This document shows positions 287 to 20,377 of a stretch of 21,852 bases of DNA, piece after piece. The stretch lies in contig CAYXAY010000011.1 in the NCBI GenBank assembly GCA_964463155.1, positions 1-21,852 of the forward strand. Direction: 5' to 3'. A model generated the notes under the pieces. The model had not been told where the DNA came from. It searched no databases and was given only the letters and a program-made list of their open reading frames with translations. Position numbers and translations under genes: made by a program. This DNA is from an uncultured archaeon (GTDB lineage Archaea; Iainarchaeota; Iainarchaeia; Iainarchaeales; CSSED10-239). Every line of letters starts with the position of its first letter. Position 1 is the stretch's first letter.

Positions 287-1552
287 ATGGAATTAAAAAA
301 AACATTATTTGCTCAAAATTATTGGTGGAAAGAAAAAATCGCTTTTGATTTTAAAGATAGAGACATAGATATAGAAATATCTAAATTTATTACAGAACCG
401 CAAATACTAGCAATTACTGGAATAAGAAGAGTTGGAAAAACCACTTATCTATTAAGTCTTATTAATAAATTAATTAAAAATGGCACAAATCCAGAAGCAA
501 TACTTTTTGTTTCCTTTGACGAACTTAAAACTCAAAAAATTAGAGACATCTTAGAAACCTATGAATCAATTATTGAAAACAAAAAATTTCAAAAAACATA
601 TTTGTTTTTAGACGAAATACAAAAACTTAAAGATTGGGAGAATCAAATAAAATCAATATATGATGAACATAAATTGAAAAACGATTTAAAAATATTTATT
701 TCTGGTTCTGAATCTTTATTTATTAGAAAAAAATCAAAAGAAACTTTAGCTGGAAGAATATTTGAATTTAAAATGAATCAATTGTCTTTTAAAGAATATT
801 TAAATTTTAAAGATTTAAATTATAAAAATATACAACTTTATGAAAAAGAACTATTAATTGACTTTAATAATTTTATTTTAACACAAGGCTTTCCTGAAAT
901 GCTAAATTATACAGACTATTTTAAATTAAAAAAATATACTAATGAAATCACTGAAAAAATCATATTTGGAGATATAGCAAAACAATTTAAAATTACAAAT
1001 TTACAAGCACTAGAATCAATTGTTAAAATAATATCTAATAATCCAGGGCAATTACTTGATCAAACCGATTTAGGCTCAGAAATAAATGTAGTTAGGCAAG
1101 TTGTTTCTAATTATCTTAAGTATCTAGAAGAATCATACTTAATAAAAAAACAATATAATTATTCAAATAATTTTAGAAAAACAGAAAGAAAACTTAAAAA
1201 ATATTATCCTACAATCTTGTCTCCTGAGATTATATTAGATGAAGATTATTTATCTAAGTCTAAGGTTTTTGAAACATTTATAATTAATCAATTAAATTCT
1301 AATTTCTTTTGGAGAGATGCTTATAAAAATGAAGTAGATATGATTTTTGAAAAGAATAAAACAATTGTCCCAATAGAAATAAAATACGGAAAAGTAGAAA
1401 CAGAAGGATTAGATAAATTTATGTCAAATAATAATGTTTCTGTTGGTTATATAATTAGTTTAAATATAGAAAAAAAAATACAGAAAGGAGACAAAACGAT
1501 TTATGTAATCCCCGCATATAAATTTTTACTAAACAAAGACAAATATTTATGA
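287..1552 (+). CDS. AAA+ ATPase of the archaeal COG1373 type (AAA domain plus DUF4143-like C-terminal PD-(D/E)xK-like module)
   Basis: Complete 421-aa ORF with an ATG preceded by GGTG. Walker A is GIRRVGKTT and Walker B is TYLFLDEIQ. The C-terminus (WRDAYKNEVDMIFEKNKTIVPIEIKYGK) has a D...E-x-K arrangement like the nuclease-fold module of this family. Confidence 0.75.
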   Translation: MELKKTLFAQNYWWKEKIAFDFKDRDIDIEISKFITEPQILAITGIRRVGKTTYLLSLINKLIKNGTNPEAILFVSFDELKTQKIRDILETYESIIENKKFQKTYLFLDEIQKLKDWENQIKSIYDEHKLKNDLKIFISGSESLFIRKKSKETLAGRIFEFKMNQLSFKEYLNFKDLNYKNIQLYEKELLIDFNNFILTQGFPEMLNYTDYFKLKKYTNEITEKIIFGDIAKQFKITNLQALESIVKIISNNPGQLLDQTDLGSEINVVRQVVSNYLKYLEESYLIKKQYNYSNNFRKTERKLKKYYPTILSPEIILDEDYLSKSKVFETFIINQLNSNFFWRDAYKNEVDMIFEKNKTIVPIEIKYGKVETEGLDKFMSNNNVSVGYIISLNIEKKIQKGDKTIYVIPAYKFLLNKDKYL

Positions 1553-5879: not shown

Positions 5880-6965
5880 CTAAAAGACCCTTGACTCTCT
5901 TCTTGGAAGCCTAAAGCCATAACTTTTGGTTTTTTCTAGAATCTTGTTTGTAATTAGGTTAATCTCTTGAAGAGTAAGGCGACTTCTGATGTCTGCCTCT
6001 ATTAAAACTGAAGGATAGGTGTATTTTTGGTTAAAGGAAGAAATTTCTGAAACCATTCTAATAAGCTTATCTGTGTATTCCTTTAAGGAAAGATTGAAAT
6101 CTTTATAGTAAACAAACTCCAGCCTTAGAGGGTAATCATTATCAGAAAGCTTTAAGTAGCAACAATAGAGATTATCTCTTATCTCTTCTGGGAAATCAGA
6201 AAGGATTGGATGGTTTTTTGGGTCCTTTGAATATTTGAAGATTCCTGTTCTTTGGTTCTTTTCTAAAAGAGAAAAAACAACAAAAGCATCAAAGAGTTCA
6301 AAGTCAAGGTTTTGGTCATTGAATATTTCATCTTTTAGAATTGAAAAGAGACGATTTGCTCTACAATCTTCTATTGTTCCAGCTAAGAAAATCTTTTTTT
6401 CTCTTGCCTCTTTGTAAACAGAAAGAAACTTTGAGATTAAATGTTCGTATTTTTTCTTTTGAGGACAATCCGTTGTTGGCTTGTTGATGTATTGAGGAAT
6501 GATTGAACCGTCAAATAGAAATAGTTCAAGGTTGCTTTCTTGTTGTCCAAGAATTAGTGAGGAAATTTCTAGTTCTTTTTCCAAACGAGAAATGGAAGTG
6601 TTCCACATTATCTCCTCAAGCTCTAGAGAAGAACTAGAAAGATATGGTTTTGGGAGATTGTACATGTTTGGAAAATATTTGTAGTTTTTTAATTGCCCTT
6701 CTTGATAATCAAAAAATACTCCTGCTTCCTTGATGATTGTGATATTAGCAAAATTAAGTTGCTTTGAGACAAACCCAGAATCAACGCCAGCTGCCTTTAA
6801 AGAAAAGTTTCTGTCAAATGAAATGTTTTCAATAAGTTTTTCCTCTGAGTTGTAAGGATTATTAATTTCAGAAATATTAATAGTGCGAAGACGAGAAATA
6901 AACACTTGGTTCTTGTTATAGGTATTTACCATCTGTTCAACAACGTTGTTAATGTCTTGTTCCAT
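5880..6965 (-). CDS. nurA: NurA-family 5'-3' nuclease
   Basis: 361 aa. AAGVDSGF (first catalytic Asp), the acidic RLEKELE block and LFLFDGSIIP (second Asp motif) occur with NurA-like spacing. The later GTIEDCRANR and YPSVLIEADIRSR blocks also fit. The ATG is 2 nt after the stop of the upstream toxin gene. Confidence 0.65.
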   Translation of the reverse strand: MEQDINNVVEQMVNTYNKNQVFISRLRTINISEINNPYNSEEKLIENISFDRNFSLKAAGVDSGFVSKQLNFANITIIKEAGVFFDYQEGQLKNYKYFPNMYNLPKPYLSSSSLELEEIMWNTSISRLEKELEISSLILGQQESNLELFLFDGSIIPQYINKPTTDCPQKKKYEHLISKFLSVYKEAREKKIFLAGTIEDCRANRLFSILKDEIFNDQNLDFELFDAFVVFSLLEKNQRTGIFKYSKDPKNHPILSDFPEEIRDNLYCCYLKLSDNDYPLRLEFVYYKDFNLSLKEYTDKLIRMVSEISSFNQKYTYPSVLIEADIRSRLTLQEINLITNKILEKTKSYGFRLPRRESRVF

Positions 6966-6967
6966 AT

Positions 6968-7411
6968 TTATTTCTGCTTTTTCCGGATATTATATTTCCT
7001 ATTAGATTTCCAGATAATTTCTGATTCTTGTTTTTTAAGTTTCTTCAAAATCAATTCTTTTTGTTTCTCTGTTAAGTTTTTATAATAAATCTTTTTCTTA
7101 CTTGCTTTTAATAGATTACTAAAATTGTTATCTTTTTCTATATCAAAATATCCAAATAAAGAATATACATTTCTTCTATACCCTACTTTTATTGTGATTA
7201 TTTTTTTATATTCTTCTTTAATATAGTATATTATTCTATAATCTCCAACATGTAAACTTCTAGTGTTTTTTAAAAAATTAGACATTAGTTTACCAAATTC
7301 TGGATTATCATTTAGTTCTCTTATTTTTTTTATAACCTGAATTTTAATAGATTTGTCTAGCTTTTCAAGTTCTTTTTTTGCTTGAGGAAAAAACAACCTT
7401 TCATAAATCAT
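6968..7411 (-). CDS. RelE/ParE-family type II toxin with a 60-residue Lys-rich C-terminal extension
   Basis: The core is ...AKKELEKLDKSIKIQVIKKIRELNDNPEFGK...LHVGDYRIIYYIKEEYKKIITIKVGYRRNVY, which is the RelE/ParE pattern GDYRIIY...V..R..VY. The track ORF starts at a TTG (7420), and I prefer the ATG at 7411. That start overlaps the antitoxin stop by 11 nt. Confidence 0.7.
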   Translation of the reverse strand: MIYERLFFPQAKKELEKLDKSIKIQVIKKIRELNDNPEFGKLMSNFLKNTRSLHVGDYRIIYYIKEEYKKIITIKVGYRRNVYSLFGYFDIEKDNNFSNLLKASKKKIYYKNLTEKQKELILKKLKKQESEIIWKSNRKYNIRKKQK

Positions 7412-7634
7412 TTTCGTCAATTCCTAATTCTTTTAATAATTCTGATTCAGAAATACATTCTCCATTTTTGTAAGCAATTTCTGCTTCTTCTGTAAGTCTT
7501 AATATGTCTAATAATTCTAAATCTGCTAATTTCTTTGCAATAGATCTTCTTGCAACTTCGCTCCATCTTATTTCTGAATACTTTTTCATTCCAGTATACA
7601 TATAATCAGGTATTGTTAAAGTTATATTTGCCAT
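7401..7634 (-). CDS. Ribbon-helix-helix antitoxin paired with the RelE/ParE toxin
   Basis: 77 aa. The N-terminus ITLTIPDYMYTGMKKYSEIRWSEVARRSIAKKL fits a beta-strand plus two helices (RHH), and the tail is acidic. It sits immediately upstream of, and overlaps, the toxin gene. Confidence 0.6.
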   Translation of the reverse strand: MANITLTIPDYMYTGMKKYSEIRWSEVARRSIAKKLADLELLDILRLTEEAEIAYKNGECISESELLKELGIDENDL

Positions 7635-11815: not shown

Positions 11816-11979
11816 GGGGATATGGGGTAGTCCGGTTAGCCTAGCGGGCTCCAGATTGTTTAAGCCTTAAAGCAGGATGTTTGAAAAAACAGATGATTGA
11901 GAATTACAGGTATGCTAAGAAACTATTCTTAGAAAAAAGGAGATACCTGTTGACCTGGGTTCAAATCCCAGTATCCCCA
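11816..11979 (+). tRNA. tRNA-Trp: tRNA-Trp (anticodon CCA) interrupted by a 90-nt intron at the canonical 37/38 position; no encoded CCA end
   Basis: The acceptor stem is GGGGATA/TATCCCC plus discriminator A. The D arm is GGGT-AGTCCGGTTA-GCCT. The anticodon stem is GCGGG (11844-11848) / CCTGT (11946-11950) and the loop is CTCCAG|A. The T arm is CTGGG-TTCAAAT-CCCAG. The mature length is 74 nt. Confidence 0.85.
11855..11944 (+). other. tRNA-Trp intron with a bulge-helix-bulge splicing motif
   Basis: The central 4-bp helix is CUCC (11849-11852) / GGAG (11939-11942). It is flanked by the 3-nt bulges AG|A (11853-11855) and AU|A (11943-11945). The outer helix is UUGUUU (11856-11861) / AAAAAA (11933-11938). 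An internal perfect 7-bp hairpin CTAAGAA-ACTA-TTCTTAG spans 11915-11932. Confidence 0.75.
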
Positions 11980-12436: not shown

Positions 12437-12588
12437 ATTTATCACAGTTAATATACAAGTGTTAAAATAAAAGAATTTAAAAAGCTTGCACTGGACAGCT
12501 ACCCCCCCGGAAATGCCCCTCTTATAACACACCACTATTTCTTATCTGCCAAAGAATTATTTAGAAATTGTGGAAGTGATTAGAGAAT

Positions 12589-14049
12589 ATGGAGCAGAGA
12601 CTATGCTTACTTAATAGTAGTTATGAAAAAGACAGGGCAAGAGTAGTTCTCTACTTTGGTAGAGACCCGCTTAATAATAACTATGAGTTTGTGTATAAAT
12701 CCACTTTTTATCCTTTCTTTGTTGTTGAAGTAAACCATTCTCTTGTTTCTCAGTTATTAGCTGATTTTAGAAAAGACATTTCTTTAAAATCTATTGACAA
12801 CAAAACAAAAATCATTGCTAGAAACTTTGAGCTTTTAAGTAAATGTTCAAAAATACTTCAGCAAGCAACAGGAAAAAACATTATCCTAATTGAACCAGAA
12901 AGGCAATTTCTTATAAGAAACAACTGGAGTTATTATGATGTTTTTTATGTCTTTAAGGGAAATCTAAAGAAAATTACAAACGAAAACCACATTCATTTTG
13001 CTATAAGAAACTATACTGAATCACTCAATAGAACAGAAAAGATATCATTGATTGAGCCATTAACTAAAAAACTAATATTAAGCAATATCCTAAAGCTAAA
13101 ACCAGAAACCGATATCAAAAACGACCAAATCCTTAATACTCTTTTTGAAAACGAGTTTTTTAACAAAGAGCTGATTTTAAAGAATACAAATAATTTTTAT
13201 TATGAAACCAAGGGGAAATTCCTAAAAGATCATATCAATCTTGATTTTTCTAATGTCATACCATATCTTCTAACAAACAAGTTTAGTAATATTGGTTTTG
13301 AAACCCTCAATTGTGATTGCTGTCATCCACTTTCAACTTTACAAGAGAATGTCCTCCCCTCATCTCTTGTAGAAGTTGAGTTTAGAAAATGTGGGTTTTA
13401 TTTTATCTCTTGTGATGATGCTTGGGCAAGAGATTATCACGATAGTCACGACCAGAAAGAAAACCGCAAAAACTACAAAAAACAAAATGGGCTTTTCAAA
13501 AGTGTTGTTGGGCCTTTCTCCAGAGGTCAAAAAGAACATCTTTTGCTTGCTGACGCCTTTAGACTTACAAAAGATAAAGACATTGTCATTCTTGAAGACC
13601 AAAAACAACTTGTATGGAGTTGCCAAAAACAAGAATCATTTATTTCAAAAATCATAAACGACTTAATTGAAAGACAAAAAGTAATTGAGCAATCAATAAA
13701 CATAAGCACACTTGGAAACTATTCTCTTAGAAGTCTTGAAAACTCAAGAGAGCTTGAAACAAATCCTATGTTCCTACAATATTTAACAGAATATTCACTT
13801 ATCAACTCCTTAATTGAAGAAATGCCAAAATTCCTACAACACAAAAACACAAAGTTCTATTCTCCAACTCTTGAGCAAGCAATCAGAACCATCAAATACA
13901 ACACCATTAACGAAATAAACAAAGAAGAAGATAGAATCATCATCTCCGAGAAAAGCAATATCCAGATAACAAACAAAAAGCTTCTAGCAAAAATCAACCA
14001 GACCTTCCCAAAAATGAATCTACCGGTGCCTAAATTAATTATTGGGTAA
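12589..14049 (+). CDS. Highly diverged, probably inactive family-B DNA polymerase-like protein (N-terminal domain + degenerate palm/fingers; no exonuclease core, no thumb)
   Basis: 486 aa. Blocks alignable by eye to archaeal PolB are: CLLNSSYEKDRARVVLYFGRD...FYPFFVVEV (N-terminus), LIEPERQFLIRNNW (E-DIPF--RYLID block) and NLDFSNVIPYLLTNKFSNIGFETLN (motif A). Further blocks are SFISKIINDLIERQKVI (GFIPSLL--LL-ER--IK), SLINSLIE (motif B, NS retained) and RIIISEKS in place of motif C YxDTD. A GGAAGTGAT Shine-Dalgarno-like motif lies upstream. Confidence 0.5.
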   Translation: MEQRLCLLNSSYEKDRARVVLYFGRDPLNNNYEFVYKSTFYPFFVVEVNHSLVSQLLADFRKDISLKSIDNKTKIIARNFELLSKCSKILQQATGKNIILIEPERQFLIRNNWSYYDVFYVFKGNLKKITNENHIHFAIRNYTESLNRTEKISLIEPLTKKLILSNILKLKPETDIKNDQILNTLFENEFFNKELILKNTNNFYYETKGKFLKDHINLDFSNVIPYLLTNKFSNIGFETLNCDCCHPLSTLQENVLPSSLVEVEFRKCGFYFISCDDAWARDYHDSHDQKENRKNYKKQNGLFKSVVGPFSRGQKEHLLLADAFRLTKDKDIVILEDQKQLVWSCQKQESFISKIINDLIERQKVIEQSINISTLGNYSLRSLENSRELETNPMFLQYLTEYSLINSLIEEMPKFLQHKNTKFYSPTLEQAIRTIKYNTINEINKEEDRIIISEKSNIQITNKKLLAKINQTFPKMNLPVPKLIIG

Positions 14050-14075: not shown

Positions 14076-14354
14076 TTACTTCATCAATTTGATTTCTATT
14101 GCAGAAACCTTCATTGGGGTGTTGTTCTCTGTTGTTATTTCTTCTGTGGATATCGCAATATCTGCAACCTTAACTGTATTAACAAATTTGTTCTTAACAA
14201 TCTCAGCAACATCAACAGCTTTAGAAATTGTCTTTCCTCTAGCCTTTATTGTTACATTATCTGTTCCCTGGTTAAACTGTGTTATCACTGCAAGAACATA
14301 TGACATTGTTCCTTTCTTTCCTATGTATATTGTATTTCCTTCCATTTCGCTCAT
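14076..14354 (-). CDS. albA: Alba (Sac10b-family) chromatin / nucleic-acid-binding protein
   Basis: 92 aa. [24 protein letters not shown]...[24 protein letters not shown] closely follows the Alba consensus (IGKKPVMNYVLA...[22 protein letters not shown]). A G-rich Shine-Dalgarno motif lies upstream. Confidence 0.9.
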   Translation of the reverse strand: [92 protein letters not shown]

Positions 14355-14440: not shown

Positions 14441-15646
14441 CTAAATAAGTTTCTTTATCTTTTTTAGGGTTTCAGCAAGCTCGTCTATTTCTGATTTTGT
14501 GTTATAGAAATAAAAGGAGACCCTCACTAATCCGTCTTTATTAAAACTAGACACTAATGGTTCAGCACAATGCATTCCTGCACGTGTTGCAATATTACTA
14601 TACTCGTCTAAGAAAGAAGAAAGCTCTCTTGATTTTATTCCTTTAAGGTCAAACAAGACAATTGAACCTTGCTTTTTAGAATCACAAGGATTGTAAAGTT
14701 TTAAATCAGAAATATTATTTAGTTTGTTGATTGCATAATCCGTTAATATCTTGTCCTGTCTTTCAATATTATCAATGCCAACTTTCTTTATATAATCAAT
14801 TGCTGCCAGTGTTCCAAAGGCACCAGCAATGTTAGGAGTTCCTGCTTCAAACTTGTTTGGTAAACTATTCCATGTGGATTTCTTAAAAGTAACCTGTCCA
14901 ATCATGTCTCCTCCGAATCTTACTGGAGAAAACTTATCAAGAAGTTTTTCTTTACCAATCAATATTCCAACGCCTGTTGGTCCAAGCATCTTGTGCATTG
15001 TGCAAGCAAAGAAATCAATGTTTAGTTTTCTAAAATCAACTTTTCTATGAGGCGCCGACTGTGCACCATCAACACAAACAAGACAATTGTATTTTCTTGC
15101 AATCCTTACTATCTCTGAAATAGGAGCAACAGTTCCTGTTGTGTTTGAGATGTGAGCGATTGTTACTAATTTTGTTTTGTTTGTAATCTTTTTTTCAAAA
15201 TCATCAAGATCAAAAGTAAAGTCTTTTTTTATTTGTACAAACTTTAGCTTTAATCCAAGTTTTTGAGAAATAAACTGCCAAGGCACAAGGTTTGCATGAT
15301 GTTCATAGACTGTTGTTAATATCTCGTCTCCTTTCTTGAAATAATTAGAATTGTATAACATATACATTATCATGTTTAGAGAATCCGTGCTGTTATGTGT
15401 TAGGATTACTTCTGTTGGTTTGCAGTTAAAAAACTTTGCAAGCTCTGTGTGGCAAGCCTCATAAATAATGCTTGCTTCTTGAGATAGTTTATAGACCCCC
15501 CTATAAATATTTGCTTGGCAGTATATATAATAATGATTCACTGCATCAACCATTTGTTTTGGTTTAAGGCTAGTTGCTGCGCTATCGAGATAAACAATGT
15601 CTTTTTTTAACAAAGGGAAATCCTTTCTGTATTTTTCTAGAGTCAT
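14441..15646 (-). CDS. sufS: Cysteine desulfurase, SufS/CsdA-type class V aminotransferase
   Basis: Motifs are FPLLKKDIVYLDSAATSLKP, the PLP-lysine block CTMHKMLGPTGVGIL and the catalytic Cys block TRAGMHCAEP. The track ORF starts at a TTG (15793) and overlaps rpl44e. The ATG at 15646 (MTLEKYRKDFPLL) matches the family N-terminus. Confidence 0.85.
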   Translation of the reverse strand: MTLEKYRKDFPLLKKDIVYLDSAATSLKPKQMVDAVNHYYIYCQANIYRGVYKLSQEASIIYEACHTELAKFFNCKPTEVILTHNSTDSLNMIMYMLYNSNYFKKGDEILTTVYEHHANLVPWQFISQKLGLKLKFVQIKKDFTFDLDDFEKKITNKTKLVTIAHISNTTGTVAPISEIVRIARKYNCLVCVDGAQSAPHRKVDFRKLNIDFFACTMHKMLGPTGVGILIGKEKLLDKFSPVRFGGDMIGQVTFKKSTWNSLPNKFEAGTPNIAGAFGTLAAIDYIKKVGIDNIERQDKILTDYAINKLNNISDLKLYNPCDSKKQGSIVLFDLKGIKSRELSSFLDEYSNIATRAGMHCAEPLVSSFNKDGLVRVSFYFYNTKSEIDELAETLKKIKKLI

Positions 15647-15780
15647 TGGTTTTTCACATCTTTCTTCTGAAATTAATATATAAGCAATCTTTTTAAATAA
15701 ATATGGGGCATTATATATTATATAGAGTGATCTAAAATTCTGCTCTTTTTTTATAATATTTAACAAAAGAACGATTATAT

Positions 15781-16065
15781 ATGAAGATACCAAAGCAAAT
15801 CAAAACATACTGTAAGAAATGTAAAAAACACGAGGCGCACAAGCTTTCTCAATATAAAGGGAGAGGAGCTAGACCTATGTCAGTAGGCACCCGAAAATTC
15901 CAAAGAAAGCATAAAAGTGGATATGGGGGTAAAGCAAAAATCATAGGTACGGTCAAAAAACAAAATAAGAAACCAACATTTATCGCGGAATGTATGGTTT
16001 GTAAATCCAAAAGATATTTTGTCATACCAAAGAAAATGAAAAAAACAGAATTAAAGACTGACTAA
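15781..16065 (+). CDS. rpl44e: 50S ribosomal protein L44e (eL42), zinc-ribbon type
   Basis: 94 aa. MKIPKQIKTYCKKCKKHEAHKLSQYKGRG...GYGGKAK...ECMVCKSK carries the two CxxC pairs and the GYGG block of L44e. Confidence 0.9.
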   Translation: MKIPKQIKTYCKKCKKHEAHKLSQYKGRGARPMSVGTRKFQRKHKSGYGGKAKIIGTVKKQNKKPTFIAECMVCKSKRYFVIPKKMKKTELKTD

Positions 16066-16121: not shown

Positions 16122-16793
16122 ATGAAATTTGACACAATCTATAAGTTTATTGCAGCTAGCTTTGCCATAGCTTATTTTGGTGGTTTGATTGTTGGAATGA
16201 TGGTTGTTAGTTTTGATATTGGAAACTATCAAGAGACAGATATTACTAAGTCTTTTTATCTTACTGGTCAAGTAAGCTTTAGAGATGTTTTTACTGAAAA
16301 CTTAAACCGCGCATTAAAGATGGCAATATTGCCATTCACTTTTCTTATAATAGCAATAAAGTTTGGCTTTAATCATGCAACATATATCTTGTCCCCATTT
16401 TTGGGACAGATTAAGCTTGCTGTTCTTTTTATACCGCAGATATTTTATTTTATTACCTATGTTTTGTTTTCCGTAATTGGGTTAAAGATAATTGCAACCA
16501 CTGTTTTGTTTATTGCCAATAGATATTTGATTAAAGGAAATAAGCAATTTGTCAATATAAAAATATTTGGAACTCATGATGTGCTGTTATTGTATCTTGC
16601 ATTATTGTCTCTAACAATCGGCACATTCACACAGATATATCTTTCAAGGGTGTTTTTCATATTCTTGATTAATTATCAACTAATCACCTATGTATTGATT
16701 CTGTTGATATATGTTGCAATCATTGCATTTTCATTATATATAATTTATCAGACAATAAAGTCTATTTTAAAAGAGAATAAACATGGGTATTGA
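16122..16793 (+). CDS. Polytopic membrane protein (about 6 TM), weakly SpoIIM/DUF95-like
   Basis: 223 aa that is almost entirely hydrophobic helices. FRDVFTENLNRALKMAILPFTFLIIAIKFGFNHATY loosely resembles the F..NL..........G.NG block of the DUF95/SpoIIM family (low certainty). Its stop overlaps the downstream ATPase start by 11 nt. Confidence 0.6.
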   Translation: MKFDTIYKFIAASFAIAYFGGLIVGMMVVSFDIGNYQETDITKSFYLTGQVSFRDVFTENLNRALKMAILPFTFLIIAIKFGFNHATYILSPFLGQIKLAVLFIPQIFYFITYVLFSVIGLKIIATTVLFIANRYLIKGNKQFVNIKIFGTHDVLLLYLALLSLTIGTFTQIYLSRVFFIFLINYQLITYVLILLIYVAIIAFSLYIIYQTIKSILKENKHGY

Positions 16794-18078
16794 TTTTCAA
16801 TCTGAAGAGATTGTTGTTGGAAGAATACAAAGTCAGATAGCTAAGTATGGAAACAAGGGGACCGGCTATATTGGAAAGGTGGTTGTTTCAAGCGGAGAAG
16901 AGCCAGTTCTTGGAAAAAGAGTACTAATGGATGTGTCAAGATCACATGTAGCTATTGTTTGTGGAAAAAGAGGTTCTGGAAAATCTTATGCTATGTCTGT
17001 CTTGATTGAAGAATTTGCAAGACAGCCTTTTGAGATTAAGGAAAGACTTTCAGTTATTGTTATTGACACTGTCGGAATCTTTTGGACAATGAAATATCCT
17101 AACAAGGAAGAAGTAGGGCTTTTAGAGAAATGGAATCTTAAGCCTGAAGGAATAGACATTAGAAATCTTGTTCCTGTTGGTAAGAAAGACTTTTATGAAC
17201 AAAAAAACCTTCAACATGACGGCTTATTCTCAATTAGAACTTCACAAATGGATGTTGAAGACTGGCTTGCTGTTTTTAGACTTAATTGGAGAGACGCAGA
17301 GGCGTCTTTGCTTTCAAGAACCATTGACAAAATAAAGTCAAAGGTTGGAACTCTTTACGATATTGACGATATTATTACTGAAACAAAAAAAGACGAAGAA
17401 ACAACTAAAGAAATTATTAATTCTTTAAACAATCGTTTCTTGGTAGCAAAATCCTGGGGGCTTTTTTCAAGAGCAGGAACAACAATGAAGGAGTTTGCTA
17501 AACCTGGCACAATAACAATTGTTGACACCAGCACCTACAAAGAATCAATTGGTATGGAATCAATTAAAGAATTGATTGTTGGAATCTTAGGCAAAAGACT
17601 TTACGAAGAAAGAATGCTTTACAGAAAAGAAGAAGAAATGTCTCTTTTGTCTAGAGGAAGAAAAGAAAGTGAGATGCCAATCATATGGATGATGATTGAT
17701 GAAGCGCATATGTTTATGCCATCAGACAGACAATCAATGGCACTTGATGTTCTTTTACAATGGGTAAGGGTTGGAAGGCAACCTGGTCTTTCTCTACTTC
17801 TTGCAACACAAAGACCAAACAAACTTCACTCTGAAGCAATATCGCAATGTGATTTTTTCCTAAGCATGAGAATGACTGCTCAAGAAGATATACAAGCAGT
17901 TTCATCAATCAGGCCAAGCTATCTTAATATACCTATGGACAAATACTATGGACAGATGCCAAAAGACCAAGGTTATGCCATCTTGCTTGACGATAACTCA
18001 GAAAAAGTAATGATGATAAAAATGAAGCCAAGAGTAACTTGGGATGGTGGGAAGACAGCTAATGTTTTTATTGATTAA
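16783..18078 (+). CDS. HerA/FtsK-superfamily P-loop ATPase (DUF87-type) with only a vestigial N-terminal HAS-barrel
   Basis: 431 aa. Walker A is HVAIVCGKRGSGKS at residues 55-68, Walker B is IWMMIDEAHMF, and GRQPGLSLLLATQRPNKLHSEAISQCDFFLSMRM matches the conserved HerA/DUF87 C-terminal block. Confidence 0.8.
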   Translation: MGIDFQSEEIVVGRIQSQIAKYGNKGTGYIGKVVVSSGEEPVLGKRVLMDVSRSHVAIVCGKRGSGKSYAMSVLIEEFARQPFEIKERLSVIVIDTVGIFWTMKYPNKEEVGLLEKWNLKPEGIDIRNLVPVGKKDFYEQKNLQHDGLFSIRTSQMDVEDWLAVFRLNWRDAEASLLSRTIDKIKSKVGTLYDIDDIITETKKDEETTKEIINSLNNRFLVAKSWGLFSRAGTTMKEFAKPGTITIVDTSTYKESIGMESIKELIVGILGKRLYEERMLYRKEEEMSLLSRGRKESEMPIIWMMIDEAHMFMPSDRQSMALDVLLQWVRVGRQPGLSLLLATQRPNKLHSEAISQCDFFLSMRMTAQEDIQAVSSIRPSYLNIPMDKYYGQMPKDQGYAILLDDNSEKVMMIKMKPRVTWDGGKTANVFID

Positions 18079-19046: not shown

Positions 19047-19958
19047 CTAATGGTTTTCTTTAATCTCAATAAAGGCGTGATATGCTGCAATAGCTCCTTG
19101 GCTTGCAGAAGTCACCACTTGTTTTAAATCTGTGGAATTTGTGGCATCACCTGCTGCAAATATACCTTCTTTGTTTGTTTTTTGGTTTTTATCAACAACT
19201 ATATAGTCTTTTTCATCTAAGGAAATTTCGGTGTTTTTCAAAAGCTCAGTGTTAGGAACAGAACCAATCTCTATAAACAGACCATCAACTATTAGTTCTT
19301 TATTTGTGTTTGTTTTTATTCCCGTTAGTTTTTCTTTACCAAGAAGCTCTGTTATCTCTGTATTGTAAAGTATTTCTATTTTTGGATTATTAATTACTAA
19401 GTCTGTCCAGATCTTTTCTGCTCGCAATTGTTCTTTTCTATAAATCAAATAAACTTTGCTAGCGAGGTCTGCTAAAAGAAGAGCAGAAGTAACTGCAGCG
19501 TCACTTCCTCCAACAACCCCAACAACTTTATTTTTGTAAAAACCACCATCACATGTTGCACAATAGCTTATTCCTTTGCCTATTAATTCTTTTTCTTTGT
19601 CAATACCAAGCCTTGCTCTTGTTCTGCCAATAGCTAGAATTATCTTTTTGCTTTTAATTGTTCTTTGATTAGAATTAACAATAAATTCTTCTTTTTCCTT
19701 ATTGATTGTCATAACTTTTTCAAAAAAAACCTCTACTCCAAAAGACTGTGTTTGATCTAAAGTTTTTTCTGCAAATTCCATTCCAGATATTTCCTTTAAT
19801 CCAGGGAAATTACAAACCTTGTGAGCATAGGCGACTGCTCCGCCAAAGGAATCACTAAACACTATTGTCTTTAGGCCATATCTTGAAGAATATATTGCAG
19901 CAGTCAGTCCTGCTGGGCCCCCCCCAACAATCGCAACATCATAAATAGTTTCGCTCAT
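19047..19958 (-). CDS. trxB: Thioredoxin-disulfide reductase (low-molecular-weight TrxR)
   Basis: 303 aa. The FAD motif is VAIVGGGPAGLTAA, the redox-active site is CATCDG, the second dinucleotide motif is VVGGSDAAV, and GIFAAGDA is near the C-terminus. The start overlaps the upstream stop (ATGA). Confidence 0.9.
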   Translation of the reverse strand: MSETIYDVAIVGGGPAGLTAAIYSSRYGLKTIVFSDSFGGAVAYAHKVCNFPGLKEISGMEFAEKTLDQTQSFGVEVFFEKVMTINKEKEEFIVNSNQRTIKSKKIILAIGRTRARLGIDKEKELIGKGISYCATCDGGFYKNKVVGVVGGSDAAVTSALLLADLASKVYLIYRKEQLRAEKIWTDLVINNPKIEILYNTEITELLGKEKLTGIKTNTNKELIVDGLFIEIGSVPNTELLKNTEISLDEKDYIVVDKNQKTNKEGIFAAGDATNSTDLKQVVTSASQGAIAAYHAFIEIKENH

Positions 19959-20365
19959 TTTTTCTTCCTCTTCTTAATAAATATATCTTCATACAACTTA
20001 TTATAATCCCTTTTCTTTGCTTTTAATCCTAGAGATCTATCAATAGATTCCATACCATATCTTATATTTTCGGGACTAACTTCAATTGTTGGAATGCCAC
20101 ACTCCTCTAAAGCAGCAAAAAATTCTCTATAGGTGATACCAGCAAGCTTTGCCCCCCCAGCAATATTAACTTCTTTGTTTTTGTAGGCTTTTAGAGCCAT
20201 GCCAAGCTTATATTCCTTTAACCCTTTTTCAATTAACTTTCTTAAAAATTCAGACTCTGTTAGATTTTCTTCTTTTGCAATATTGTAAGCCATTTCAGAC
20301 ATTGCATCAGTTAATCTTAATGTTTTTACGTTCTTTCTTTCACAAACAGATTTTACTTTTTTCAT
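19955..20365 (-). CDS. Antitoxin-like protein: N-terminal ribbon-helix-helix fused to a UPF0175 (COG2886)-like domain
   Basis: KTLRLTDAMSEMAYNIAKEENLTESEFLRKLIEKGL fits RHH. LGMALKAYKNKEVNIAGGAKLAGITYREFFAALEECGIP fits the UPF0175 pattern. I prefer the ATG at 20365, whereas the track ORF starts at a GTG (20374). Confidence 0.6.
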   Translation of the reverse strand: MKKVKSVCERKNVKTLRLTDAMSEMAYNIAKEENLTESEFLRKLIEKGLKEYKLGMALKAYKNKEVNIAGGAKLAGITYREFFAALEECGIPTIEVSPENIRYGMESIDRSLGLKAKKRDYNKLYEDIFIKKRKKK

Positions 20366-20377
20366 AAATATCACATT

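Follow-up and report, generated by a model that had tools for sequence, protein, structure and literature searches.

The subject of this report is a gene of an uncultured archaeon belonging to the phylum Iainarchaeota (kingdom Nanobdellati, DPANN), which lies at positions 12589 to 14049 of the window, i.e. of the whole stretch of 21,852 nucleotides from contig CAYXAY010000011.1 (assembly GCA_964463155.1) that was analyzed. The gene encodes a protein of 486 amino acids (aa). It is well supported that this protein is a non-catalytic derivative of the family-B DNA polymerases (PolB) which is conserved in Iainarchaeota, and equally well supported that its retained parts are the PolB N-terminal domain, a remnant of the exonuclease/linker region, the palm and two finger helices. 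The palm accommodates an additional, Cys-flanked domain that is probably related to the B-domain of GINS subunits.

Polymerase fold and missing catalytic parts

The identity of the protein was revealed by its predicted structure. An AlphaFold2 model calculated with the family alignment (pLDDT 87.5, pTM 0.87) was compared by Foldseek with the PDB, which gave 112 matches at E≤1e-3; the best 50 of these 112 were all family-B polymerases. The PDB matches include human and yeast Pol epsilon, the Tgo, KOD, 9N, Pfu and P. abyssi enzymes and Sso PolB1 (E approx. 1e-7, probability 1.00, TMq 0.42–0.50), with Pol epsilon as the top full-length match. Every significant match among predicted viral structures was also a PolB, weaker than the matches in the PDB, and no closer "mini" PolB relative was found among them. 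An earlier interpretation made from the DNA letters alone (hereafter the sequence-only reading) had taken the gene for a miniaturised, inactive PolB and had named structure comparison and profile searches as ways of checking this; the structure comparison has returned PolBs only.

Neither the window protein nor any of 72 family members (21–76% identity; all column statistics given below refer to this set) matched the Pfam models DNA_pol_B (PF00136) and DNA_pol_B_exo1 (PF03104) at E≤1, a 34-sequence family profile had no match among PDB sequences (hmmsearch), and the 486-aa protein had no significant match in Pfam, NCBIfam or the PDB sequences (phmmer). An alignment by hhalign of the 72-sequence family profile with Pfu polymerase gave E=1.6e-4, with motif A as its solid core. 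Because sequence profile searches alone were empty, the PolB assignment rests on the structure model together with short-motif alignments; we consider the structural identity of the protein as a PolB derivative to be very likely at the least.

The comparators, Pfu polymerase (3a2f_A, residues 1–775) and yeast Pol2 (residues 640–1009, 4m8o_A), were verified against the PDB. The gene and its polymerase-like parts are the following:

12589 to 14049, + strand: whole family gene (from the list of open reading frames; 486 aa plus stop, ATG start), predicted to encode an inactivated, miniaturised family-B polymerase homologue
12589 to 12924, + strand: PolB N-terminal-domain-like region, residues 1–112 (conservation and, mainly, the global Foldseek match)
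12925 to 13233, + strand: exonuclease/linker remnant, residues 113–215 (AlphaFold2 secondary structure)
13234 to 13311, + strand: motif A strand, helix and loop, residues 216–241, I-N-L-D219-F-S...P225...N234-I-G-F-E-T-L-N241 (hhalign to Pfu)
13639 to 13839, + strand: fingers-like pair of long helices (351–378 and 393–417), residues 351–417 (AlphaFold2 secondary structure; hhalign to Pol2 motif B)
13840 to 14046, + strand: second half of the palm, residues 418–486 (AlphaFold2 secondary structure; hhalign to the Pol epsilon profile)
13933 to 13968, + strand: pseudo-motif C hairpin, residues 449–460 (RIIISEKSNIQI), in variable columns, opposite Pol2 LELDTDG

A resemblance of residues 217–241 to motif A, with D219 kept, had been noticed by eye. 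It is borne out by the significant hhalign alignment, in which the following residues are paired (family/Pfu): D219/D405, F220/F406, P225/P411, N234/N418, E-T-L-N241/D-T-L-N425 and C245/C429. The N-terminal likenesses proposed at the same time (residues 6–48, and a RYLID-like element at 99–112) stand on less firm ground: the pairs Y12/Y7, F23/F19, F40-x-P42/F34-x-P36 and PERQFLI/FAKRYLI were recovered, but in a second alignment to Pfu that is non-significant (E=0.17). The conserved residues of this region are Y12, F23, F40-x-P42, L83 and P103-ERQFL108. Outside the insert, the linear motif with the highest conservation is L-I-E-P-E-R-Q-F-L-x(4)-W-S-Y-F-D-x-F (residues 98–119), which reaches well past the PolB "RYLID" helix.

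In the case of the fingers, the block ESF-ISKIINDLIERQ occupies the place of Pfu (P)GFIPSLLxxLLxER and Pol2 NPFYVDTVKSFRDRR, in agreement with the likeness first suggested for residues 350–366, and a Cys precedes the Phe of the block by 6 residues in the family, in Pfu and in Pol2 alike. The hhalign alignments with Pol2 are coherent, though not significant alone (E=0.07–0.08); they pair W-S-C345-QKQESF with IV-C763-QRENPF, and residues 401–446 with the motif B helix and the R-W-Y block. The last part of the protein (residues 418–486) consists of (K/R)-F423-Y424, equivalent to R-W-Y of Pfu and Pol2, followed by a helix (426–443), a hairpin (450–460), a further helix (463–475) and a strand (482–484).

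The family therefore shares with the archaeal PolBs (Pfu, Tgo, KOD, Sso PolB1) (i) the overall fold (Foldseek probability 1.0, TMq 0.42–0.50), (ii) the N-terminal elements Y..F..FxP and P-x-x-x-(F/Y)-L-I, (iii) the motif A block LDF...P...N...(D/E)TLN, (iv) a Cys on each side of the pre-fingers loop, and (v) a (K/R)(F/W)Y block after motif B. It differs from them in length (486 aa vs approx. 775 aa), in lacking the exonuclease core, the thumb, KxY and the catalytic residues of motifs B and C, in having a 100-residue domain between the two Cys positions, and in not being matched by the Pfam DNA_pol_B and exo1 models.

The extent of these losses can be read from distances between landmarks. QFLI and D219 are separated by 110 residues, vs 282 in Pfu, which confirms that the exonuclease core is gone. 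What remains between them (residues 113–215) contains WSYFD117xF, two short strands, three helices (134–143, 148–168 and 178–192) and a low-confidence linker (202–208); here hhalign pairs, with low confidence, LSNIL...E-x-FLEN with Pfu LSRLVG...VEWFLL. The acidic set of Exo I–III is not conserved among the 72 members, and D117 (61/72) may at most be a relic of Exo I. At the other end of the protein, only 33 residues follow pseudo-motif C, vs 232 in Pfu, and the absence of a thumb is thus established by simple length arithmetic; KxY is absent as well. An adjacent open reading frame (ORF) able to supply a thumb or an exonuclease domain was seen neither at this locus nor at any of the 62 family loci analyzed.

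Among the polymerase motifs, position 219 of motif A is occupied by Asp in 58 of the 72 members, by Asn in 10 and by Ser in two. Although residues 396–417 align to Pol2 motif B, the Lys, Asn, Ser, Tyr and Gly of this motif are not conserved there in the 72 members. SLINSLIE had been thought to keep the NS of motif B, but N406 and S407 each occur in only 12/72 members, and since they are not conserved in the family this likeness is a coincidence. The placement of RIIISEKS where motif C should be, with both Asp residues gone, has fared better: a β-hairpin is predicted at residues 450–460, and hhalign sets it opposite LELDTDG of Pol2. No conserved Asp or Glu is found on the hairpin (449–460) among the 72 members. 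Judged by its sequence, the family protein is predicted to be catalytically dead.

The first relatives, obtained by a word-indexed search, formed 35 clusters of approx. 480–535 aa, named only "hypothetical protein [archaeon]". When 1.84 billion representatives were searched exhaustively with a profile, 182 proteins were recovered at E≤1e-3 (129 at E≤1e-30); each represents a cluster at 50% identity, and the family comprises at least 182 such clusters. Full-length members have approx. 485–530 aa, and none of the best 150 of the 182 has the length of a canonical PolB. A profile scan of contigs localized 56 family loci in GTDB species representatives, nearly all of them Iainarchaeota (the names are mostly Candidatus Iainarchaeum, ainarchaeum or Diapherotrites). 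Two complete genomes are among them, those of Ca. Forterrea multitransposorum (CP045477.1) and archaeon GW2011_AR10 (CP010424.1). One full-length member (28% identity) was found in locus L034, an 8.5 kb contig (JAFCBY010000044.1) from a "Candidatus Falkowbacteria bacterium" bin; this is probably mis-binned archaeal DNA rather than a bacterial homologue.

Of the 62 loci, 49 have an uninterrupted ORF of 460 aa or more; most of the other 13 are truncated at the end of a contig or fall into a subgroup with proteins of approx. 425–445 aa. In locus L028, from one species representative (contig CAYXWT010000002.1, 9974..11026), the family gene carries an in-frame deletion: the product has 350 aa and lacks residues approx. 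200–388, i.e. motif A, the entire insert with its four-Cys (Cys4) site and GINS-like module, and the first finger helix. Comparison with six relatives (67–77% identity) gave pN of 0.14–0.20 vs pS of 0.68–0.72 and dN/dS of approx. 0.06–0.11, with dS near saturation. The gene is under strong purifying selection. Conservation and dN/dS among relatives had been proposed as a check on whether the gene is a retained scaffold or a decaying pseudogene; given the phylum-wide conservation, the intact ORFs and the low dN/dS, it is not a pseudogene. We accordingly attach next to no weight to the view that it is a relic or a fragment of a split gene, for which the L028 deletion and the subgroup of shorter proteins could be cited, as this is contradicted by the uniform length of the 182 representatives, the intact loci, the invariant residues, the dN/dS values and the lack of any adjacent ORF that might supply the missing domains.

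The Cys-flanked insert and its likeness to the GINS B-domain

Conservation is concentrated in one part of the protein. Eight columns are invariant in the 72 members (P42, C242, C244, C245, R293, G308, P309 and C345), and seven of them, including the four Cys, fall in residues 242–345; near-invariant residues (N234, N254, S259, H284, D322, L326 and W343) gather in 234–350. The region corresponds to a domain inserted between motif A and the fingers:

13312 to 13323, + strand: C242-x-C244-C245, insert entry (each Cys in 72/72; equivalent, counted from motif A, to Pfu C429 and Pol2 C665)
13324 to 13614, + strand: inserted domain, residues 246–342 (column conservation)
13360 to 13596, + strand: GINS B-domain-like core, residues 258–336 (Foldseek, Pfam and hhalign)
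13615 to 13623, + strand: W343-x-C345, insert exit (W343 in 71/72, C345 in 72/72; 6 residues before F351)

This insert of approx. 100 residues is the most conserved part of the protein, and its conserved residues are N254, S259, H284, K290, R293, G308-P309-F310, D322-A323 and L326. The sequence-only reading had described a Cys/His-rich stretch at 242–287. The three Cys at its beginning are indeed invariant and H284 is present in 68/72 members, but the other Cys and His residues of the stretch are not conserved; the fourth invariant Cys, C345, sits at the insert exit.

The spacing of the Cys residues is nearly the same in the family and in the two comparators:

Family: D219 to C242, 23; C345 to F351, 6
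Pfu: D405 to C429, 24; C443 to F449, 6
Pol2: D640 to C665, 25; C763 to F769, 6

C429 and C443 of Pfu correspond to the residues that we take to form a disulfide in Tgo and KOD (C428–C442). Since the Cys positions of the family match those of the Cys pair of Thermococcales PolB (C429/C443 in Pfu) and of CysX in Pol epsilon (C665/C763), the insertion site is that of the P-domain and the [4Fe–4S] cluster. In Pol epsilon these two features are located at the palm loop (PMC6582351), and both are otherwise unique to that polymerase (PMC7544198). By analogy, the four Cys of the family presumably cluster as a clamp at the base of the insert, around Zn or Fe-S. In 20 loci the family gene shows synteny with one for a SufS-like cysteine desulfurase, which may be a weak hint of Fe-S at the four Cys or a coincidence.

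The parallel with the P-domain is one of position. Both are domains at the same palm loop, flanked by Cys at equivalent positions, with four Cys in total; the pattern is Cx2Cx8C...C in CysX vs CxCC...C in the family and, unlike the family protein, Pol epsilon is an active full-length polymerase. The possibility that the insert is itself a P-domain was rejected as a fold homology: an hhalign comparison with a Pol epsilon profile of 32 sequences was not significant (E=0.08), no Pol epsilon chain occurs among the best 50 Foldseek matches of the insert, and the Pfam P-domain model (PF22634) is unmatched by the 72 members or by insert fragments. Only the insertion site and the Cys positions are shared.

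The structural relatives of the insert were found elsewhere. When residues 230–352 were modelled alone (pLDDT 91.8, pTM 0.80), 38 of the best 50 Foldseek matches were chains of GINS or CMG entries. These include Sso GINS (9moj, with the best probability, 0.95), human Psf2 (2e9x_B) and chains of yeast, human, worm and frog CMG; the chains 2e9x_B, 2eho_C, 6xtx_B and 8ouw_B are all Psf2. The C-terminal domain of T. kodakarensis Gins51 (5ghr_B) is superimposed on the insert with TMt 0.73 and a root-mean-square deviation of 2.2 Å. The core is composed of a strand (SLVEVEF), a two-helix insert (277–300) and the segment PVGPF...LLLADAFRL...IVIL.

Sequence comparisons point in the same direction. Two Pfam models of B-domains recurred as weak matches of full-length members, PSF2_N in 6/72 and Gins51_C in 3/72. 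With insert-only fragments, PSF2_N matched 11/71 (best E=6e-4) and Gins51_C 3/71 (best E=8e-4); the window protein itself was unmatched. Neither model matched any of 70 N-terminal fragments, and the possibility that the matches reside in the N-terminal domain was consequently rejected. A hidden Markov model of the insert scored real Psf2 B-domains at 9.1–9.8 bits, vs a maximum of 6.2 over 3000 composition-matched shuffles. By hhalign, the insert aligned to an 82-sequence Psf2 B-domain profile with E=3.8e-5 (probability 71%, score 29.7, vs a maximum score of 20.2 over 200 column-shuffled controls); this profile is shallow, because the search with human PSF2 gave vertebrate orthologues and it contains vertebrate sequences only. 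The insert profile found no GINS chains among PDB sequences, a comparison too insensitive to count as evidence.

In the alignment with Psf2 the core of the insert is paired as PVGPFSRGQKEHLLLADAFRLTKDKDIVIL, and the pairing also covers AEVEFL and equates W343 with the Trp of PPEW. Four residues, G308, P309, A323 and L326, form part of the common B-domain signature GPF...PL-x-x-A-x-x-L, which extends in the comparison with GINS and PriS to GPF...(V/I)PL-x-x-A-x-x-L...I...W. D322 lies inside the aligned stretch, but the corresponding residue of human PSF2 is a Trp (that of PLWLA). What the insert has in common with GINS B-domains and PriS is thus this signature and a module of β-sheet, helix and hairpin; Sso GINS, Psf2 of human, yeast and worm, and Tko Gins51C are the structural matches. 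It differs in the two extra helices (277–300) within the B-like module, and in that the module is embedded in a palm and tied to the four-Cys site. We regard a relationship of the insert with the GINS B-domain as probable. GINS subunits are proteins of approx. 170–250 aa in which an α-helical A-domain is joined to the B-domain, and they form a tetramer. No match to the Sld5/GINS A-domain model of Pfam was obtained with the window protein or the 72 members, and since it has no A-domain the family protein is not a GINS subunit.

The B-domain is a small protein-docking module with a three-stranded sheet, a helix and a hairpin, and it also occurs outside GINS, as the C-terminal domain of PriS (PMC2861644). 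B-domains stabilise GINS and bind partners (PMC2861644, PMC9023282): the partners of Gins51C are GAN and DP1N, those of Psf1C are Cdc45 and Dpb2N (PMC9023282).

Genomic neighbourhood

The surroundings of the gene in the window are AT-rich (GC approx. 0.23–0.36) and contain archaeal housekeeping genes (for ribosomal protein L44e, Alba, NurA and HerA), the desulfurase gene and others. The features closest to the subject are listed below:

12572 to 12579, + strand: Shine-Dalgarno-like GGAAGTGA, 9 nt 5′ of the ATG (consensus match by reading the sequence)
14076 to 14354, − strand: albA (Pfam Alba, E=7e-22), convergent and directly downstream; adjacent in 20/62 loci
14441 to 15793, − strand: gene for a SufS-like class-V aminotransferase/cysteine desulfurase, two genes downstream of the family gene
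16783 to 18078, + strand: gene for a HerA-like ATPase (Pfam DUF87/HerA and PADLOC HerA models), on the same strand as the family gene
5880 to 6965, − strand: gene for a NurA nuclease homologue (Pfam NurA, E=6e-12)

The coordinates, the Shine-Dalgarno motif and the adjacent albA are exactly as first described for the intact ORF. PADLOC defence-protein models left the family protein unmatched, and the neighbouring HerA matched generic HerA models only.

ORFs from the 62 loci were clustered and annotated with Pfam. In 43 of the 62 loci a HerA homologue (DUF87 plus HAS barrel) is encoded, always co-directionally with the family gene. Of its 44 occurrences, 34 are upstream, and in 11 loci it lies directly upstream across a gap of 61–163 bp. 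Where the available sequence extends 3 kb or more upstream of the family gene, herA is found in 36/45 loci. The nurA gene is present in 34/62 loci and is always upstream of the family gene. In 31 loci a Rad50/SbcC-like ATPase of approx. 684 aa is encoded convergently downstream (median gap 517 bp). This protein matches AAA_23, SMC_N and SbcC Walker B models, and a central CxxC hook was found in 28 of the 31. It is unusually short for its kind, as in loci L004 (9982..12033, − strand) and L041 (4614..6668, − strand).

The neighbour upstream of the rad50-like gene is the gene for aEF-1beta, not mre11, and a crude regular-expression motif scan found no Mre11-type phosphoesterase in the 62 loci. 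A gene for a protein of approx. 380 aa between herA and the family gene in AR10 was considered as a candidate Mre11 and rejected, as it encodes a Na/Ca exchanger. Replisome genes (for MCM, GINS, GAN, PolD, PCNA and primase) are absent among the conserved neighbours in the 62 loci. In the clade to which the window belongs, herA has been relocated to approx. 3 kb downstream (16783..18078), whereas nurA has remained approx. 6 kb upstream (5880..6965).

The HerA-like protein of the window is short (431 aa) and intein-free. Longer orthologues, of 834 aa in close relatives (L001, 12508..15012) and 1149 aa in distant ones (L004, 3793..7242), carry an intein with a LAGLIDADG homing endonuclease. A tRNA gene at 11816..11979 (+ strand) was recognised by Rfam (43.1 bits, full model 1–71) over 164 nt, with no ARAGORN prediction in the window; to judge from its length over the model, it presumably holds an intron. 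Among the other genes, 287..1552 (+ strand) encodes an AAA_14 plus DUF4143 ATPase that matches the PADLOC candidate defence family PDC-S01 (E=3.8e-64). Toxin-antitoxin-type genes lie at 6968..7420 and 19955..20374 (both on the − strand), one for a ParE-family toxin and the other for a UPF0175 protein; in relatives, a gene for a ribbon-helix-helix antitoxin adjoins the ParE-family toxin gene.

Possible roles and significance

The conserved nurA-herA-[gene]-rad50 neighbourhood suggests a setting in double-strand-break end processing or in recombination-associated replication, together with HerA-NurA and Rad50. In the mechanism that we propose, the PolB shell would be a DNA-binding or structural platform, the four Cys would anchor the insert at its base by binding Zn or Fe-S, in the manner of CysX in Pol epsilon, and the GINS-B-like insert would recruit a partner protein. 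Taken as a whole, i.e. a dead PolB with a GINS-B-like insert that serves as an adaptor for end processing or recombination-linked synthesis alongside HerA-NurA and Rad50, this reading is offered tentatively, at slightly less than an even chance of being right.

Several observations weigh against it. No sequence-profile method reaches the curated thresholds for PolB or GINS families, both assignments hang on a predicted structure plus sub-threshold or short alignments, and the individual Foldseek E-values of the insert are only 0.2–1. The invariant polar residues R293, D322, H284 and N254 could mark an active site instead of a docking surface. The genes between herA and the family gene are sometimes unrelated (for a Na/Ca exchanger, VTT and HAD proteins), housekeeping genes (for aEF-1beta, the CCA-adding enzyme, Alba and SufS) are also syntenic, and in the Forterrea clade herA and nurA are both missing from the surrounding 10 kb; the linkage may therefore reflect inherited gene order and not a functional operon. 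It is strong in the main clade, not universal, and could in part be inherited.

A further objection concerns the register of the fold, as hhalign to Pfu also pairs W343xC345 with W504xC507 of Pfu. The insert would then replace the fingers. This register was rejected, because the model shows after C345 the PolB order of secondary structures (two long helices, a helix, a hairpin, a further helix and a strand, equivalent to the fingers, the palm helix, the motif C hairpin and the helix and strand after it), because two Pol2-based alignments favour the other register, and because (K/R)F423Y424 matches R-W-Y after motif B.

The protein could alternatively be an adaptor of the replisome and not of repair. 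As an analogue of PolEpsilonC, the non-catalytic C-terminal half of Pol epsilon, it would bind CMG (GAN/Cdc45, MCM) or the DP1 subunit of PolD through its insert, or would replace a missing or divergent GINS subunit, and the linkage with herA, nurA and rad50 would be inherited order. The proteins that GINS B-domains are known to bind belong to the replisome (PMC9023282), a B-domain is also present in the primase subunit PriS (PMC2861644), Pol epsilon is the top full-length Foldseek match, and it sets a precedent for an inactive PolB as a CMG-binding scaffold (PMC7544198); the many unrelated housekeeping genes in the neighbourhood would also fit. The weak matches of the Pfam model DUF1744, which describes PolEpsilonC, would be in line with this, but they occur in 2/72 members with E=0.018, i.e. 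at chance level. No replisome gene is found among the conserved neighbours, and the co-direction of herA in all 44 occurrences, with direct adjacency in 11 loci, is more than loose synteny. We therefore judge a replisome adaptor to be unlikely, although it deserves serious consideration.

In many archaea, herA-mre11-rad50-nurA clusters are established. The family gene is located between herA and rad50, where mre11 sits in many archaeal operons, and this raises the question of whether the protein is a repurposed enzyme, in which the insert, the metal cluster and R293, D322, H284, N254 and S259 would form a new active site, for example of a nuclease or of an Fe-S-dependent DNA-processing activity, and the protein would take the functional place of Mre11 as partner of Rad50 and HerA-NurA. 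The concentration of conservation on polar and charged residues of the insert would agree with such a role, as would the blank scan for Mre11 and the position of the aEF-1beta gene upstream of rad50; the desulfurase gene nearby in 20 loci gives a weak hint of Fe-S. However, the only detectable similarity of the insert is to a non-enzymatic docking domain, with G308, P309, A323 and L326 as part of the B-domain motif, the comparisons brought up no fold of a nuclease or hydrolase, and Mre11 may be encoded elsewhere in the genome, given that the scan was a crude regular expression applied to the loci. A new enzyme is, in our opinion, decidedly improbable.

Still less probable, to the point of being hardly credible, is an active polymerase or nucleotidyl transferase with non-canonical residues, as has been argued for PolB2 and as is true of primer-independent PolBs without the first Asp of motif C. 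D219 is present in 81% of the members, the topology of palm and fingers is kept, and the loss of one motif C Asp need not abolish activity (Kazlauskas et al., PMC7544198). On the other side, the motif C hairpin bears no conserved acidic residue at all, motif B is devoid of the Lys that binds the dNTP phosphate, D219 is replaced by Asn or Ser in 12/72 members and, as KxY and the thumb are absent, the grip on the primer-template would be missing.

The adaptor acting with HerA-NurA and Rad50 is thus the reading that we prefer. Free-standing archaeal inactivated PolBs are few and close to full length, and PolB2 and PolEpsilonC keep near full-length exonuclease, palm, fingers and thumb. To our knowledge, neither of these two has a GINS-B-like insert or a four-Cys site in the palm. 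Like the family, they combine a degraded active site with a PolB fold that selection has preserved. PolEpsilonC, unlike the family, is fused to an active module and has C-terminal Zn fingers. PolB2 and PolEpsilonC have been described as whole exonuclease-polymerase modules, of which PolB2, with one Asp left in motif C, may be active, and PolEpsilonC is an essential, non-catalytic scaffold that binds the CMG helicase (PMC7544198). The family is far more reduced than these modules and has a domain that they lack. We found no such family in the PolB survey by Kazlauskas et al. (2020) or in a survey of replisome diversity in archaea from 2025, and targeted searches for a mini or inactive DPANN PolB, for a PolB with a GINS insert and for the polymerase and GINS complement of Diapherotrites gave nothing specific; the family is an inactivated PolB paralogue of unprecedented architecture.

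Inactivated polymerase scaffolds are central to the construction of the eukaryotic replisome. The family illustrates how much a PolB can lose (exonuclease core, thumb and catalytic residues) and still be under strong selection, and it would present a case in which a docking domain of GINS type has been transplanted into a polymerase palm, at the hotspot that carries the Fe-S cluster and P-domain in Pol epsilon. For the Iainarchaeota, a DPANN "hypothetical protein" of phylum-wide occurrence now has a probable fold and a testable role, for which HerA, NurA, Rad50 and GAN/RecJ are the partners pointed to. The result could also inform models of how polymerase scaffolds, GINS modules and metal centres have been recombined in the evolution of archaeal and eukaryotic replisomes.

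It is conceivable, if rather unlikely, that Iainarchaeota possess a previously unrecognised core factor of DNA metabolism in which an inactivated PolB shell and a GINS-type docking domain are fused via a metal (possibly Fe-S) centre, at the palm site of the Pol epsilon Fe-S/P-domain, and which links HerA-NurA/Rad50 resection to the replisome through a RecJ/GAN-like nuclease or MCM. If this is true, the fused factor might even take over from Mre11 or a GINS subunit in these reduced genomes, and it would be an archaeal, free-standing counterpart of the essential non-catalytic scaffold of Pol epsilon.

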